A model generated the notes under the pieces. It was not told where the DNA came from, searched no databases, and saw only the letters and a program-made list of their open reading frames with translations. 64,000 bases of DNA from an uncultured Verrucomicrobiota bacterium. GTDB lineage: Bacteria; Verrucomicrobiota; Kiritimatiellia; PWTM01. The position numbers and the translations under genes are program-made. Positions 13,324 to 22,183 of this stretch are shown here, one piece after another. The stretch is taken from positions 11,600 through 75,599 of the forward strand of contig CAZSUU010000015.1 in the NCBI GenBank assembly GCA_964610105.1. Reading direction: 5' to 3'. The first letter of the stretch is position 1, and every line of letters begins with the position of its first letter.

Positions 13324-13532
13324 AGGCCAGAGCCCGAAGCGCCTTGAGGCCCGTACGTTCGACACGGCGCCGGCGTGCCGTGCCGAAGCGGAGCCATCGC
13401 AGGTCGCCCGGCTCGCCCTCCAGACGCGTCCCCGGATGGACTGCTTTGTGTTCGCCCCTCGCGCGCAAATGAGTAAACTGGATGGCCAATGGCCCGGAAT
13501 GTGATGTGGTATCGCACATGAGGAAAAGAACC

Positions 13533-14822
13533 ATGAAGTTCAGAATGTCGGCGGTGTGTCTGGCGACCTTGTCGCTCTGTGCTCTGACGGTGCACCACGC
13601 GGCGGCCGAAGGATCATCGGCCCCCGTCGTGAAGACGGGCGCGCGGGTGGCCGTCATCGGCGACTCCATCACCGAGCAGAAGCTTTACAGCCGCTACATC
13701 GAGACCTACCTCGTCGCGTGCCAGCCGCAGCTCGACGCCCGCGTGATGCAGTTCGGCTGGAGCGGCGAGCGCGCCGCGGGATTCGCCGGCCGGATGGCGA
13801 ATGATCTCACCCCCTTCAAGCCCACCGTCGCGACCACCTGCTACGGGATGAACGACGGCCGGTACGGTCCCTATTCCGACGAGGTCGGCAAGTCGTACGA
13901 GGATCCCATGCGCGACATCGTCAAGCGGCTCAAGGCCGCCGGCGCGGTGGCCGTCGTCGGCGCACCCGGCGCCGTGGACACGAAGTACTACCAGCGCGGC
14001 TCGCCGGATTCCGCGAAGGAGTACAACGCCACGCTTGCCCGCCTGCGCGACATCGCGCGCCGGGTGGCCGCGGACGAGGGCATGCCGTTCGCGAACGTGC
14101 ACGACGTGCTGATCGAGACGATGTCGAAGGCCAAGGCGGCGCGGGGCGAAGGCTATGACGTCTGCGGCGGCGATGGCGTCCATCCCGCCCCCAACGGCCA
14201 GCTCGCCATGGCCTACGCGTTCCTCAGGGCCATGGGATTCGACGGCGACCTCGGAACGATCACGGTCGATCTGGCCGGCCCGTCCAGCGCCGCGAACGGC
14301 CACCGCATCGTCGGGCAGGAGGGCGGCACGGTGCGGATCGAGAGCGCCCGGTACCCGTTCTGCTTCAGCGGCGACGAGCAGTCCTCCGGCAGCCCGCGAA
14401 GCATCCTCCCCTTCCTGCCGTTCCAGCAGGATCTGAACCGCCTCACGCTGGTCGTCCGGAACGCGAAGGGACCGAAGGTGAAGGTGACATGGGGCGACGC
14501 GGCGAAGGTCTTCGACCGCGCGGACCTGGAGAAGGGCATCAATCTCGCGGTCGAGTTGCCCGAGAATCCCTTCTCGCCGGCCTTCAAGGGCGTCGACGGC
14601 GCCGTGGGGAACAAGCAGGCCTTCGAGACCTTCATGATCAAGAACAACATCACCGAGTATCCCCAGGCGAAGAGGTTCATCGGCCAGGACGCGGAGGCGC
14701 TGGCCGCGCTGGAGGCATTCCACCGCAAACTCTGGGAGCGCGAGGAACGGCTGCAGGCCGCCGTCAAAGCCGCCTTCCAGCCGGTGCAGCACACGATCGT
14801 GGTTGAGGATGCCGCGCCGTAG
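13533..14822 (+). CDS. secreted SGNH/GDSL-family hydrolase (lipase/esterase/carbohydrate esterase)
   Basis: AGGAAAAG Shine-Dalgarno sequence 8 nt upstream. Signal peptide MKFRMSAVCLATLSLCALTVHHAAA. Block I VAVIGDSIT, block III GMNDG and block V GDGVHP are present. An alternative start exists at 13518. Confidence 0.72.
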   Translation: MKFRMSAVCLATLSLCALTVHHAAAEGSSAPVVKTGARVAVIGDSITEQKLYSRYIETYLVACQPQLDARVMQFGWSGERAAGFAGRMANDLTPFKPTVATTCYGMNDGRYGPYSDEVGKSYEDPMRDIVKRLKAAGAVAVVGAPGAVDTKYYQRGSPDSAKEYNATLARLRDIARRVAADEGMPFANVHDVLIETMSKAKAARGEGYDVCGGDGVHPAPNGQLAMAYAFLRAMGFDGDLGTITVDLAGPSSAANGHRIVGQEGGTVRIESARYPFCFSGDEQSSGSPRSILPFLPFQQDLNRLTLVVRNAKGPKVKVTWGDAAKVFDRADLEKGINLAVELPENPFSPAFKGVDGAVGNKQAFETFMIKNNITEYPQAKRFIGQDAEALAALEAFHRKLWEREERLQAAVKAAFQPVQHTIVVEDAAP

Positions 14823-14978
14823 CGGCCTCGCCGACGCCGGGAGCGGTTCTGCATGGCATCCGTGGCCGCGTCGTCCCGCGACGCACCCGCCGCCTTTGCC
14901 ACCTTCTCGGACGCCGTACGCGTCCCTGCGCCGCGGCGGGGGGTGTCGTGCGGTCCGGGTTCCCGGTTGGCCGCCCCC

Positions 14979-17882
14979 CTACAGGAAGAAACCCTGTTCA
15001 TAGATGGCGCGGTTATCGGCCGGCGGCGCTCCGGCATCGGGCCGCGAGGATGCCGGGCGAGGCGCGGACAGCCCGACCTTCCACTCCCGGTACTGCTGGC
15101 GCACGCGATCCAGCACGTCGGCGAAGTACTGGAGGTGAGGATTCCGGTCGTCGATCATCTGCCCCAGCCCTATGAAGGTGTAGATGTTCACCCACTCCCC
15201 GCCCACTTCGATCTCGAGGTCCGGATTCGGAACATAGTAACCCCGCCGAAGCCGCAGGAAGAGCCGCCGGTTGCGGGGCGCCGGGCTGAACATCTCGTTG
15301 CCGGCCAGCGCCGCCGTGATCGCCCCGCGATGCCGGCGATGCAGCGGCAGGACGCGATTCGGGAACTGGCCCAGGTGGTGCACGATGTCGCCGGTCTGGA
15401 GGCCGGGGACCGCATACTCGATCTTGCGGCGCAGCAAGTCCTGCAGCAGCGCCACCATGACCTCGAAGACGAAGAACTCCATGCGGTGCCGGTCGATCTT
15501 GTGAAGCTGGCCGTCGGTCTTCACGTTGACCGCGGCGGGGGCCAGCAGATCGTAGATCCGCCCCAGGCTGTCGCGGGCGTAGCCGGCCACCATGAACGCC
15601 TGCCGCAGCGCGACATGAAAGGCCGTCCGTCCGAAGTTGTCACGCAGATGCGGATTCGAGCCCTGCCGCATGAGATCCTCGACAAGATCCGGCATGCCGC
15701 GACAGGCCGCGATCATCAGCGGCGTCTGGTTCAGCGGATTCCTGAAGTCCACGCCGTATTTCTCCAGTTTCTGCCGCAGCACGGTCAGGCTTCGCTCGGC
15801 ATAGTCGGCCTGATACTTGCGCTCGATGTTCGGCAGTTCCGCGACGAAACGCGCCGCGCGGCTGAACTTCATTTCTTCCAGACGGCAAAGGCGTGGGAGG
15901 TCGCAGTACGTCGCCGCGTACTCGAACAGCAACTGCTTGGCCTGCTTGTTGAATCGTTCCGGATCGAACGCCTCGCGGTCAAGGTCCGCGAGGTTCGAAG
16001 GTGTCAGCACCTTCCAGGGGACCGGCTGCTGGGACAGGATCGTTCGCCGGATCGCCTCGGCCTGCTCCTCCTTGCCCTGCATCTCCAGCCGGCGCGCCTC
16101 GGTCTTCCACTCCTCCGCGGTCGAGGACTGCGACCGGACCTTCACGCCCGTGGTGGCGGGGCGAAGATCCAGCAGGGCGAGGAACGGGTGGACGCCGTGC
16201 TGCTCGACCACGTACAACGTTCGCACCGCCCTCGTGACGGCGACAAAGAAGGCGTTGATGAAGAACTTGTAGACGTCCAGCGACTTGTCCGTCTTGTCGC
16301 GCGCCCGCGCATACTGGAGCTCGGCCTCCAGGTCGGCGGCGGACACGCCCTCGGCGATCTCGGCAAAATCGCGGTTCGACGACGACACCATGTTGAACAG
16401 CACGATGGTCTCGTATTCGAGCCCCTTCGCCTCCTGGATCGAGAACACCAGCGGCGTGCGAAACGATCGACGGGCCCCGGCCTTGTCCTCCTCCCGCAGG
16501 ACGATCACGGCCACGCGCGCGGAGCGGCACGTCTTGTCGTCCAGGTCGCGCACGACCGCGGGGCCGGCGTCGAGCAGATGCGCTTCTCCCTCCACTCCGG
16601 CGGTGCTGCGGGCCAGGTAGGTGCTCTCGCGGTCCACCGAGCCGAACCGCGCGTTCTTGACCCGCAGGATCCGGTTGGCGAGGTCGGTGATGCAGGGGGC
16701 GTTGCGGTAGTTGGCGTTGAGGATGCGCACGATCTCGGCCCGCCCCTGCATCCGCTGCTCGTAGAACATGCTCTTGAGGGCGGACCACGAGAAGAAGTTG
16801 GGGTGCACCACCTGGTTCGCATCGCCGCAGAGCACGAAGTTGCCGGGCTGACGCAGGGCGGCCAGGACCAGGTGCACCTGCATGTTGGTCAGGTCCTGCA
16901 CCTCGTCCAGCATCACGGCATCGTAGCGCTTCTCCACATGCGCCTGCGCGCGGTGCGACTCGATGTTGAGGTCGTAGAGGCCGTCCTCCGCGAGCCAGGA
17001 CCGGTACTTCTCGAACAGGGCGTACACGGCTTCGCGCTCGTCGGCGTTAAAGATCGATCGCCGGACGCCCAGCGACAGGTAGTCCTCCCGCTCGAGCCAG
17101 GGCCGGTCGACGGCGGCGCCGGTCAGCACGCCGCTGAACTCCTCGAAGAGCCGGTGCGCGTCCTTGACCGGCGAAGCGGTCCGATGACGGGCAAACCAGC
17201 CGGCAAAGGCGCGGAAGCTCACCGGCCGTCCCGCCGGAACCCGCACACTCTCGAGGTACTCCTTGAACGACAGGAAATCCACGTCCTGCCGGTCGTTCTC
17301 ATACCCGTGGGAGAAGTAGAGGCGGCTGGCGTGCTCCGCCAGGAACGGGGAGAGCGTGATGTACGCCACCTCGCCCGTCAGCCTCTTGAGTTTCTCCAGC
17401 ACCACGGCCGTCTTTCCGCTTCCGGCCGAGCCGATCAGAATGAGGGGCGGAGGCAGGTGCAGGGCCTCGTGCTGGTCGTCGTCGAACGAGAGCACCTTGT
17501 CGAGGAGGTGGAAATACCGCCGCCCGGGGTGCACGTACGCCAGGGCCAGGGCCTCGGCGGCCGCATCGTCCGGCGGGGCGTGCAGCGGTTGGAGTCGGGT
17601 CTCGTCCACGACCGCGCCGTTCAGGAACCGCGCGCGGTCATAGGCATGGTTCTCGATGATCTCGAGAAGGAGAATGCACCGCGCGCCCGCGTAGTCGCCC
17701 AGGCGGAAGACCAGACGGTCGGCGGCCGACAGTTCCGCGCGGTAGTACGGCGTCGGCGTCAGTTTCTTGACGTTGGCCGCGCGGAAGTCGCCGGCCCGCA
17801 GCGCCGCGACCACCCGCTCGAAGGCCCCTGCATGACGACCGGGGTGTAGATCCCCGTGAACCAGGATTTCCATGGGGGGCAT
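14979..17882 (-). CDS. UvrD-like superfamily-1 helicase with an N-terminal RelE/YoeB-like segment and C-terminal ankyrin repeats
   Basis: Walker A LILIGSAGSGKTAV. DExx motif II MLDEVQDLT. Motif III LCGDANQ. Motif V/VI SIQEAKGLEYETIVLF and VAVTRAVRTLYV. Residues 40-90 (KKLTPTPYYRAELSAADRLVFRL...CILLLEIIENHAYDRA) follow the RelE/YoeB toxin pattern. The C-terminal NPLNQTPLMIAACRGMPDLVEDLMRQGSNPHLRDNFGRTAFHVAL is an ankyrin repeat. The antisense ORF 14853..17849 is junk. Confidence 0.8.
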   Translation of the reverse strand: MPPMEILVHGDLHPGRHAGAFERVVAALRAGDFRAANVKKLTPTPYYRAELSAADRLVFRLGDYAGARCILLLEIIENHAYDRARFLNGAVVDETRLQPLHAPPDDAAAEALALAYVHPGRRYFHLLDKVLSFDDDQHEALHLPPPLILIGSAGSGKTAVVLEKLKRLTGEVAYITLSPFLAEHASRLYFSHGYENDRQDVDFLSFKEYLESVRVPAGRPVSFRAFAGWFARHRTASPVKDAHRLFEEFSGVLTGAAVDRPWLEREDYLSLGVRRSIFNADEREAVYALFEKYRSWLAEDGLYDLNIESHRAQAHVEKRYDAVMLDEVQDLTNMQVHLVLAALRQPGNFVLCGDANQVVHPNFFSWSALKSMFYEQRMQGRAEIVRILNANYRNAPCITDLANRILRVKNARFGSVDRESTYLARSTAGVEGEAHLLDAGPAVVRDLDDKTCRSARVAVIVLREEDKAGARRSFRTPLVFSIQEAKGLEYETIVLFNMVSSSNRDFAEIAEGVSAADLEAELQYARARDKTDKSLDVYKFFINAFFVAVTRAVRTLYVVEQHGVHPFLALLDLRPATTGVKVRSQSSTAEEWKTEARRLEMQGKEEQAEAIRRTILSQQPVPWKVLTPSNLADLDREAFDPERFNKQAKQLLFEYAATYCDLPRLCRLEEMKFSRAARFVAELPNIERKYQADYAERSLTVLRQKLEKYGVDFRNPLNQTPLMIAACRGMPDLVEDLMRQGSNPHLRDNFGRTAFHVALRQAFMVAGYARDSLGRIYDLLAPAAVNVKTDGQLHKIDRHRMEFFVFEVMVALLQDLLRRKIEYAVPGLQTGDIVHHLGQFPNRVLPLHRRHRGAITAALAGNEMFSPAPRNRRLFLRLRRGYYVPNPDLEIEVGGEWVNIYTFIGLGQMIDDRNPHLQYFADVLDRVRQQYREWKVGLSAPRPASSRPDAGAPPADNRAIYEQGFFL

Positions 17883-18002: not shown

Positions 18003-18632
18003 ATGAAGAGACTGAACGTGCTGATCGGCGCGGGATTCGTGGCGGCGGGCACGGCGGCCCTGGCGCAGACGCCGCCGCAGCCCTCGCCGGAACAGATGGA
18101 GCAGATGATGAAGGCCCTCGGGCAGCTGGGGGCGGCCATGGCGGCGAGCACGAACGCCGCGCCGCTGGTGAGCCACAAGGACCTGAAGGCCCTGCTGCCC
18201 GCCGAGCTGCCCGGACTCGCGCGCAAGGGGTCCGAGGCGGAGACCGGGGGCGGCATGGGCGTGCGGATCTCGCGGGCCCAGGCGGACTACCGCGACGACA
18301 AGGGCGCCGAGATCACCATCGAGCTGTCCGACCTCGGCGGCATCGGCGGCCTGGGGGCGATGGCCGCGGCGGGGTTCGCGATGGCGGACATCGACAAAGA
18401 GACCGACGAGGGCTACGAGCGCACCTTCGACCACAAGGGGCACAAGGCGAAGGAGGAATACAACACCCAGGACAAGGCGGGTTCCATCGAGATGATCGTC
18501 CGGCAGCGGTTCTCGGTGAAAATCCACGGCTCCGGCGTGAAGGCCGAGGCCCTCAAGGGCGCCCTGGAGAAGATCGACCTCGCCAAGCTGGCCGCGCTCA
18601 AGCCCGCCCCGGCGGCAGCCCCGCAGAAGTAG
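18003..18632 (+). CDS. hypothetical secreted protein
   Basis: Internal ATG with a GGAG sequence upstream. Signal peptide MKRLNVLIGAGFVAAGTAALAQTP. The mature protein is Ala/Gly/Lys-rich with no recognisable family. The N-terminal 49 codons of ORF 17856..18632 overlap the helicase start region. Confidence 0.45.
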   Translation: MKRLNVLIGAGFVAAGTAALAQTPPQPSPEQMEQMMKALGQLGAAMAASTNAAPLVSHKDLKALLPAELPGLARKGSEAETGGGMGVRISRAQADYRDDKGAEITIELSDLGGIGGLGAMAAAGFAMADIDKETDEGYERTFDHKGHKAKEEYNTQDKAGSIEMIVRQRFSVKIHGSGVKAEALKGALEKIDLAKLAALKPAPAAAPQK

Positions 18633-20392: not shown

Positions 20393-22183
20393 ATGGGTGA
20401 TGCGTCAGAATCCGAACGGAGACCGAGACCTCAATCGGCAGCGTCGCGGAGAGGGATGGTCGTCGGGATCCTCGGATCGAGCCTGCTCGCCGCCGGCTGT
20501 CTGATCGCCCCGCGTTCGCGGATGCCTCGAACGCTGGAGTTCCCGGCCGACCGGTCACTCGGAGAGATCCGGGTTCGAACCGTCGGTGCGGCGGAGGCGG
20601 TCGACGATTGGCGCTTCGGCGGAACGAAGGGGTGGCGGAAGCTGGCGCCCGCGCGGGGCTTCGTCCGGGTGCCACCCGGTGTGGAGGCACGCCTGTTTGT
20701 GGCAGAGGAGGCCCTGGCTGACCTCTCGCCGCTCTCGCGTCTTGCACCCGACGCCCTGGAAGGCATGGTGGTCACTGTGGCGCAGAGCGGTGTCGACACC
20801 TATGAGGGGCGCTGGCTCAAGGACATTGGCCATCTGCGGGGCTTGAGGAGCCTGATCATCCGGGCCGGCGTCCACAACGAGTCGCTCGCCGCGATCGCCG
20901 GGCTGCGGGCGCTCGAACACCTCGACCTTTCGTCGGCGGGCATCGACGGGAGGGCGTTCGAGACCCTCGGCCGGCTGCGCGGCCTGCGCCGTCTCCAACT
21001 GCGTCTCGGCGCCACCATCCTGCCGGAGGCCTGGTCCCGCCTGACCCACCTGACGGCCGTCCAGGAACTGAGCCTTTACGGTGCACAGACGTGCGAGTTC
21101 GCCACCGCCGCCATCGCGAAATTGCCTGCGCTCAAACGGCTCTTCCTGCGACAGGGCATCGTCTGGACCGCGGACGGCATCCGGCCCCTGGCGACCCATC
21201 CGGCGATCGAGCGGCTCTCGCTGTACGACATCACCTCGACGGCCATGCTCGCTGAGGTGGCGCGGATGCCCCGCTTGCGCAACCTAAGCGTTCGCATCGA
21301 CGAGGAGATCTCGCTCGCCCCGCTCGCCGGCGCCGCGTGTCTCGAGTCCCTTTCGATCGGCGGCACCCTTTGCGACCGGTCGATGGCGGGTCTGGAGGGT
21401 TGCCGCCGCCTCAAGTCAGTCAGCGGCCACGCGGATTTCCAGATGTTCTGGCCCAACCTCGCGGATCGAGGGCTGGAGATCCTGGGCCGGATTCCGACGC
21501 TGGAGTACATCGCGCTGGGCGACGGCCAGTTCACGGATGCGGGGCTGGAACACCTGTCGGCCCTCCGCCGGCTGCGCGCGCTGCGCTTGCCCAACTGTTC
21601 GGAGTTCACCGACGCAGGGCTCGCAGCGATCGCCGCCTGCGCGGGTCTCGAAGAAGTATACTTCCACGGCGACCATTTCACGGACGCGGGGGTGGAACGT
21701 CTGGCGAGCCTTCCCCGGCTTCGCTCCCTGAGACTCATGACGGCGCCCCGATTGACCGATGCCGGCATCGCGGTGATCGGCCGCGCGCGCAGCCTTCGCG
21801 AATTGGCGCTGTTTGCGCCGAAGGCGACCATGGGTGGCCTCAACGTCCTGGCCGCGCTGCGCGAACTCGAACACCTGAGTTCAGGGGGTGCGCGGGCGGA
21901 AGGGGCGATGCTCGATCTATCGTCCCTGCGCGCGTTGAAAGAAGTGGAGATCGGAAACGCGCGCCCCGGCGATACGCAGTGGCTGGCCGGCCTGCCGCAG
22001 GTGGAGTCGCTGCTCGTCCGCCTCGCGGAACCGATCGGGGATGCCGCGTTCGAGCGGCTCGCGCGCATCCCTTCGCTGCGCAGCCTCCGTCTCTACCCCC
22101 GCGCCAGGGCGGCGGTCTCCGACGCCGCCCGCGAACGCGTCAAGAAGGAGCGGCCGGACCTGGAGATCGTGACCTTCAACTGA
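20393..22183 (+). CDS. leucine-rich repeat protein, probably a lipoprotein
   Basis: About 20 tandem LRRs of roughly 24-26 aa (LxxLxLxxCxxITDAGL type). A possible lipobox, LLAAGC, follows the alternative start at 20456. The 5' part of ORF 19943..22183 overlaps nadK and is not coding. Confidence 0.65.
   Translation: MGDASESERRPRPQSAASRRGMVVGILGSSLLAAGCLIAPRSRMPRTLEFPADRSLGEIRVRTVGAAEAVDDWRFGGTKGWRKLAPARGFVRVPPGVEARLFVAEEALADLSPLSRLAPDALEGMVVTVAQSGVDTYEGRWLKDIGHLRGLRSLIIRAGVHNESLAAIAGLRALEHLDLSSAGIDGRAFETLGRLRGLRRLQLRLGATILPEAWSRLTHLTAVQELSLYGAQTCEFATAAIAKLPALKRLFLRQGIVWTADGIRPLATHPAIERLSLYDITSTAMLAEVARMPRLRNLSVRIDEEISLAPLAGAACLESLSIGGTLCDRSMAGLEGCRRLKSVSGHADFQMFWPNLADRGLEILGRIPTLEYIALGDGQFTDAGLEHLSALRRLRALRLPNCSEFTDAGLAAIAACAGLEEVYFHGDHFTDAGVERLASLPRLRSLRLMTAPRLTDAGIAVIGRARSLRELALFAPKATMGGLNVLAALRELEHLSSGGARAEGAMLDLSSLRALKEVEIGNARPGDTQWLAGLPQVESLLVRLAEPIGDAAFERLARIPSLRSLRLYPRARAAVSDAARERVKKERPDLEIVTFN

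Follow-up and report, generated by a model that had tools for sequence, protein, structure and literature searches.

Toxins such as RelE, YoeB, HigB and YafQ, which are ribosome-dependent mRNA interferases with the BECR fold, belong to toxin-antitoxin (TA) modules of type II and are free-standing proteins of about 90 aa; the RelE-family toxins are textbook two-gene modules. We know of no RelE-family toxin that is coupled to a motor protein, and a few recent fusions do exist (Cami1, fused TA genes). In Cami1, a CARF-RelE fusion which serves as an ancillary effector of type III CRISPR (PDB 8phb), RelE is tethered to a sensor, an example of such a domain functioning in that arrangement. Helicase-nuclease defence proteins and GajB join a UvrD-like superfamily 1 (SF1) motor to a domain of nucleic-acid-cutting type within one accessory gene, and RNase L combines an ankyrin sensor with an RNase. 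In this work we have analysed a gene at 14979..17882, on the minus strand, of a 64,000-nucleotide stretch of DNA from an uncultured Verrucomicrobiota bacterium (contig CAZSUU010000015.1, positions 11,600 to 75,599), which as a whole is called the window below. The gene is real and intact, and it encodes a large uncharacterised protein in which a RelE/YoeB-like domain, a UvrD-like helicase and ankyrin repeats are found together. Each of these domains is of a known kind, and their combination is undescribed in the libraries and literature that we searched, despite its presence on a well-studied virulence plasmid. A preliminary description, made from the DNA letters, had proposed this three-part architecture and had recognised in it no described family. 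Structure prediction and fold search support the architecture, and its novelty is borne out by PADLOC and NCBIfam, which returned partial and generic matches only, by literature searches, which found no paper on the family, and by the 2025 survey of Gerdes, which links multidomain RelE/ParE toxins to defence and nowhere mentions helicase, UvrD or ankyrin (PMC11980606). The parts of the gene are as follows.

14979..17882, minus strand: the whole open reading frame (ORF), with the stop codon at 14979-14981 and the probable start at Met4 (17873), which gives 964 aa
17583..17873, minus strand: residues 4-100, RelE/YoeB-like (BECR-fold) domain of predicted topology beta-alpha-beta-beta-beta; candidate active-site residues K40, Y47, R48, position 50 (K/R; E in the window copy), R56, E74, H79, Y81 and R85
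17511..17582, minus strand: residues 101-124, poorly conserved linker (mean pairwise identity 0.30)
16158..17510, minus strand: residues 125-575, SF1A UvrD/PcrA-like helicase core with a Q-like LSFDDxQ motif, Walker A K157, DEVQD 326-330 and motifs III, IV, V and VI
15543..16118, minus strand: residues 589-780, helical hairpin and, after it, a degenerate array of ankyrin repeats
15603-15773, minus strand: residues 704-760, one canonical ankyrin repeat
15078..15542, minus strand: residues 781-935, family-specific conserved C-terminal domain with abundant invariant K/R
14982..15077, minus strand: residues 936-967, variable C-terminal tail, probably disordered

The N-terminal domain is predicted to have the compact BECR fold, an antiparallel sheet with an N-terminal helix; the helix is long and single in the model, whereas two are found at this place in RelE and YoeB. 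When its model was used in a fold search, the best scores were those of YoeB (8.8 and 8.4), HigB (8.2), archaeal RelE (8.1) and YafQ (7.8), followed by the CARF-RelE effector Cami1 (7.1) and by ParE (6.9 and below), the RNase-type toxins outscoring ParE. The RelE/YoeB-like character that the preliminary description had given to the N-terminus is correct at the level of the fold; an ordinary extension of the UvrD 1A domain lacking a toxin fold, the outcome that would have spoken against it, is not what we found. It was fold comparison alone, and not sequence profiles, that linked the domain to RelE/YoeB. Pfam gave nothing over residues 1-130 of the window protein and no match to a curated RelE, YoeB, HigB, YafQ or ParE family, and among 34 N-domain members it reported only ParE_like, in 2 of the 34 and at E 0.019. 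The hidden Markov model of the domain had no match among PDB sequences, and its hhalign comparison with E. coli YoeB and RelE was not significant (the YoeB sequence used is identical to 2a6q_E).

The weak, non-significant register given by hhalign sets YYRA(K/E)L...DRLVF on YKIKL...YRLVY of RelE and WSRRI...HRLVY of YoeB. In this register R48/K50/R56 stand opposite RelE K52/K54/R61, and R56 stands opposite YoeB R65; with a manual extension NHAY (H79, Y81) falls at YoeB H83-Y84. The catalytic residues taken as reference are K52/K54/R61/R81/Y87 in RelE and E46/R65/H83/Y84 in YoeB. Across 145 full-length homologues K40, R56, H79 and Y81 are invariant (145/145), R48 and E74 are kept in 144, and position 50 is K or R in 138 and E in the other 7, which include the window copy. 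The domain is strongly constrained, and its constrained residues, as placed by the fold and the weak register, appear to match those which an RNase of the BECR fold would need. Every RNase of this fold that has been characterised cuts mRNA bound to the ribosome, and ParE proteins are without the invariant basic/His/Tyr set at the RelE/YoeB catalytic positions (PMC11980606).

The helicase part was described beforehand as a complete UvrD-like motor, and so it is. All SF1 motifs are present: Walker A GSAGSGKT (151-158), DEVQD (326-330), GDxNQ (353-357), NYRN (391-394), EAKGLEY (484-490) and VTRA (548-551), with R393 in motif IV and R551 in motif VI. They are invariant in the same 145 homologues, including Walker A K157 and motif II D326/E327 (145/145 each). 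With the Pfam UvrD-helicase model the protein obtains 42.9 bits, the cutoff being 23 (E 6e-11), and there are additional matches to AAA_19 and UvrD_C_2; together with motifs Q, I, Ia, II, III, IV, V and VI this places the motor among the SF1A helicases of UvrD/Rep/PcrA type. Among sequences of solved structure, those of UvrD (3lfu/2is1, E 2.6e-5) and PcrA come closest to it. Viral_helicase1, the Pfam model of an SF1 RNA helicase family, is reached at its cutoff by the window protein and by several other members. None of the NCBIfam equivalogs for UvrD, Rep, PcrA, RecB, AddA and HelD was passed, the scores being 12-28 bits against cutoffs of 419-1168 (23.3 against 1144 for UvrD). Judged by these profiles, the motor is a complete but divergent SF1A helicase that is not orthologous to any named one, and orthology with UvrD, Rep, PcrA or RecB was rejected on the scores and on the domain content.

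The ankyrin repeats foreseen at the C-terminal end are also there: the canonical repeat at residues 704-760 exceeds the Pfam cutoff and a solenoid fold is predicted for the region. The conserved domain that follows the array is predicted to consist of a beta-hairpin, a long helix, two further helices and a four-strand beta-meander. For residues 781-935 no Pfam or PDB sequence match was obtained and the fold search gave no non-ankyrin match; from the order of its predicted elements alone, the domain might be winged-helix-like. In other members of the family the short tail is swapped for long extensions. A large subclade, which comprises P0085, P0096 and about 25 others of 1320-1430 aa, carries a C-terminal DUF1186 and a SEC-C zinc motif, and the extensions of the long members P0134, P0253, P0198 and P0208 have no Pfam match. 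In SecA, the SEC-C motif makes contact with ribosomes and with SecB. Specificity may be determined by this variable C-terminal end of the protein. One further member, P0025, appears to be fused to uroporphyrinogen decarboxylase (residues 1093-1338); this is probably a read-through gene call, since a related contig has paralogues of that enzyme on both sides of the gene (L093 3997-5052 and 11074-12060).

How does this protein compare with the described systems? Unlike RelE, YoeB, HigB and YafQ, its toxin-like domain is joined to some 870 aa made up of the helicase, the ankyrin repeats and the C-terminal domain, has no antitoxin gene, passes no Pfam family threshold and has the single long helix. 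It shares with Cami1 the tethering of RelE to a sensor, as we propose it here, but an SF1 helicase and ankyrin repeats take the place of CARF, the RelE domain is N-terminal and there is no CRISPR linkage in the loci examined. In comparison with the helicase-nuclease proteins and GajB, the effector fold is RelE-like and not that of a DNA nuclease (PLD, Vsr, TOPRIM), and there is no GajA partner. The best PADLOC matches were in fact GajB models (E 4e-12), which aligned over about 100 of their 500-600 positions around motifs II-IV; membership of Gabija was rejected on this partial match and on the lack of a conserved GajA, an OLD/TOPRIM nuclease, in 80 loci. RNase L has in common with our protein the generic ankyrin fold alone: its RNase domain is unrelated (KEN against BECR). 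The HelD-like RNA polymerase helicase offered as an alternative in the preliminary description was likewise rejected, because the HelD score lies far below its cutoff (16.8 against 419 bits) and the N-domain, a beta-sheet RelE fold, supplies no coiled-coil arm for the secondary channel of RNA polymerase.

A profile search with the N-domain, made among 1.84 billion representatives, retrieved 685 clusters (50% identity) at E 1e-3 or better. The best 150 of these consist entirely of proteins of this helicase family, which have the domain at their very N-terminus, and none is a standalone relative of the domain, short matches being truncated or frameshifted gene calls; at the sensitivity of HMMER, the domain occurs only within the helicase fusion. 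Full-length homologues of 43-56% identity are found in at least 567 species-representative genomes. The matches listed include Planctomycetota, Verrucomicrobiota, Lentisphaerota, Kiritimatiellota, Bacteroidota, Desulfobacterota, Chloroflexota and others, and, within the Gammaproteobacteria, Methylococcales, Thiothrix and Endozoicomonas. Mean pairwise identity among the 145 homologues is 0.55 for the N-domain and 0.56 for the motor, which are thus about equally conserved and more so than the ankyrin region (0.43), the C-terminal domain (0.44) and the tail (0.20). The names given to these proteins in databases are all generic ("hypothetical protein", "AAA family ATPase", "ankyrin repeat domain-containing protein", "UvrD-helicase domain-containing protein").

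Members of the family are also carried by enterobacteria on mobile DNA. Homologues of 42% identity and 95% coverage are present on 139 plasmids, 101 of which are Shigella plasmid records, and most are intact, as the match spans 80% of the query or more in 126 of the 139 records. An intact full-length copy (42% identity) on Shigella dysenteriae pSD1_197 (L087 8938-11850), the one Shigella record that we inspected, is annotated merely as a UvrD-helicase domain protein and lies between shf-capU-virK-lpxM and IS4/ospG/ipaH9.8. The gene is carried by 99 of 5426 complete E. coli genomes (about 2%). Both chromosomal E. coli contexts that we inspected are CP4-like islands with CbtA/CbeA, antirestriction, afa/dra or cdiBAI genes. 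In these two islands and in one inspected E. coli plasmid, the gene directly follows a block composed, in this order, of an inovirus Gp2 family protein, a hypothetical protein, an AlpA-type helix-turn-helix protein and a Gp2-like protein of 178-188 aa:

L088 8339-11850: block and gene
L089 13422-16898: block and gene
L090 13401-16894: block and gene

The small gene upstream might act as a partner specific to this lineage, or it might be no more than island backbone. A three-way alignment showed that these copies retain the whole architecture and the invariant residues of the N-domain. Two of the E. coli copies have the accessions WP_000686652.1 and WP_187655799.1, and the copy on Shigella pINV has WP_164925050.1. 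In E. coli strain EC28 the copy is frameshifted.

In the window, the gene is a single unbroken ORF of 967 codons counted from its first ATG, at exactly the coordinates given before; only the start was moved. The true start is probably Met4 at 17873, with a product of 964 aa, because a GAGGA box stands 9 nt upstream of this second ATG and just 3 nt from the first one (17882), the database protein P0001, found on 14 metagenomic contigs, has 964 aa and is 100% identical from Met4 on, and the homologues begin with MEIL or MDIL. The description of a solitary gene, convergent with its downstream and divergent from its upstream neighbour, was confirmed: a GDSL-lipase gene (13482..14822, plus strand) converges on it across 156 bp, and a 209-aa gene that starts near 18003 diverges from it across 120 bp. 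These gaps are too short to leave room for an antitoxin gene or a second cistron in the window. The GC content, earlier said to match that of the host, is close to it but slightly lower (0.664, with 0.699 in the window as a whole), and GC at third codon positions (GC3) is 0.886, where the neighbours have 0.89-0.96. A 998-aa antisense ORF that spans the helicase gene (14853..17849, plus strand) was dismissed as a shadow ORF typical of DNA with 70% GC. Consensus scans of the window for promoters and terminators came back empty, the consensus being uninformative for this organism. Farther along, right after genes for a NAD kinase and a TlyA-like protein, a leucine-rich-repeat protein is encoded (window ~20450-22183, plus strand); it has 575 aa according to the genes called on L001, a contig identical to ours.

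We asked if the gene keeps company with others. Clustering of neighbouring ORFs of at least 80 aa around 80 loci found none that recurs in more than 5 loci and no partner or antitoxin; the adjacent cognate antitoxin gene that marks a type II TA system is absent from these loci and from the flanks in the window. Context was annotated by Pfam in eight loci and by a bulk Pfam/PADLOC scan of 123 flanking ORFs, an output unsuited to an enrichment statistic, and the bulk scan was heterogeneous with no recurrent system. Conflict genes are scattered nearby: BrnT/BrnA with a reverse transcriptase, PIN/PhdYeFM, VapBC, one Septu-like PtuA/PtuB pair and Fic. Three of the eight annotated contexts have TA pairs adjoining or near the gene, which suggests insertion at variable genomic spots:

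L004 4122-7706: BrnT/BrnA and reverse transcriptase
L092 9948-10576: PIN and PhdYeFM
L093 1-343: VapBC

Enrichment beside defence genes, put forward as a check in the preliminary description, is not what these neighbourhoods show, and neither is the opposite picture, of orthologues embedded in housekeeping repair operons, which was never seen in the contexts examined.

What could be the role of such a protein? We tentatively favour, with rather less than even confidence, a self-contained toxin-sensor protein regulated in cis, which would act in abortive-infection-like defence or in the maintenance of mobile elements. The RelE/YoeB-type endoribonuclease-fold domain would be its effector, the UvrD-like SF1 helicase an ATP-driven motor or nucleic-acid sensor, and the ankyrin array with the basic C-terminal domain would recognise a partner or ligand. 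Because no antitoxin gene exists, the RelE-like domain would have to be inhibited within the protein itself, kept inactive in cis by the helicase, ankyrin and C-terminal part. On engagement of a specific nucleic acid or protein, for example intermediates of an invading replicon, an ATP-dependent rearrangement would free the domain to cut RNA, most likely ribosome-bound mRNA as RelE, YoeB, HigB and Cami1 do, and translation would arrest. We favour this toxin-sensor model because the active site of the toxin fold looks intact, the fusion is to the motor only, there is no antitoxin, the distribution is patchy and transferable with carriage on plasmids and islands, and the C-terminus is variable. 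Several observations weigh against it. Since the sequence similarity to RelE/YoeB lacks statistical significance, the mapping of the catalytic residues rests on the fold and the weak register, and the window copy itself has E and not K/R at position 50. PADLOC-DB v2.0.0 contains no full-length match, with only partial, generic UvrD-like and ankyrin matches among the 25 best of 47 families. No neighbour is conserved across the 80 loci; the neighbours in environmental genomes are mostly metabolic or housekeeping genes (ThiC, ArgJ, IlvD, AcrB, penicillin-binding proteins, a tRNA synthetase, ScpAB and others), and no phage genome with a family member was found. Identity of about 40-60% across phyla and near-host GC and GC3 would also fit a stably kept cellular function. 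Our confidence in the toxin-sensor model is held down because RNase activity, autoinhibition and trigger, like the biological role as a whole, are what we infer from these data, because no linkage to defence islands appears in environmental genomes and because PADLOC holds no full-length match. The single-gene defence or stress factor of the preliminary description has therefore stood in part: the sporadic spread and the Shigella and E. coli plasmids and islands agree with it, whereas the lack of a conserved neighbour, the housekeeping surroundings and the absence from phages do not. We consider a role in defence or conflict to be plausible, though not proven.

Is it possible that the protein is instead a cellular helicase for RNA or ribosome surveillance? 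Its RelE-like domain would then dock in the A site, or cut there, when ribosomes have stalled or collided, and the motor would next strip or unwind the mRNA, a bacterial analogue of mRNA quality control by an endonuclease and a helicase and not a conflict system. Action on ribosome-bound mRNA is what the characterised RNases of the fold have in common (PMC11980606). All domains are strongly and evenly conserved, housekeeping neighbours predominate, GC is host-like, the SEC-C motif occurs in a large subclade and Viral_helicase1 is at its cutoff in the window protein and several members. We nevertheless consider this role unlikely: only some 2% of E. coli genomes have the gene, which islands and plasmids carry, and its spread across phyla is patchy, all of which is unusual for a core quality-control factor, and no ribosome-related gene is linked to it in the 80 loci. 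Still less probable, in our judgement, is a ParE-like, non-catalytic N-domain that would target gyrase or another DNA enzyme, with a DNA helicase for plasmid or island maintenance or for the resolution of replication conflicts; the RNase-type toxins lead ParE in the fold search, and the invariant basic/His/Tyr set stands at RelE/YoeB positions, where ParE lacks it (PMC11980606). That the protein is an ordinary repair or transcription helicase of UvrD/HelD type, with terminal domains as mere scaffolds, would explain the generic matches of UvrD, Rep, PcrA, RecB and HelD models over motifs II-IV. We regard this as very improbable, given that all the equivalog scores are far below their cutoffs, that the N-domain has a RelE fold and not the coiled-coil arm of HelD, that the gene is never within a repair operon and that its distribution is accessory.

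A widespread fusion of a RelE-like domain with a helicase, in which the N-domain is constrained as strongly as the ATPase site, would suggest that a translation toxin can be controlled in a new manner, through the sensing of nucleic acid or through translocation and not by antitoxin degradation. Alternatively, it would be a new use of an A-site-binding fold, which would bring a helicase to ribosomes. Perhaps the protein is the first of a class, so far undescribed, of effectors for immunity or addiction that consist of one protein, and in which an SF1 helicase with ankyrin and C-terminal sensors gates a covalently attached mRNA interferase of RelE/YoeB type; such an antitoxin-free, ATP-controlled switch for translation arrest would then be present also on the Shigella virulence plasmid and on pathogenicity-type islands of E. 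coli, a proposal that we hold possible but doubtful. A helicase-coupled RelE domain would surprise specialists in TA systems or phage defence. The intact copies in E. coli and on Shigella pINV make the question open to standard genetics, and its answer could also matter for a major virulence plasmid, for its stability or its resistance to phage.

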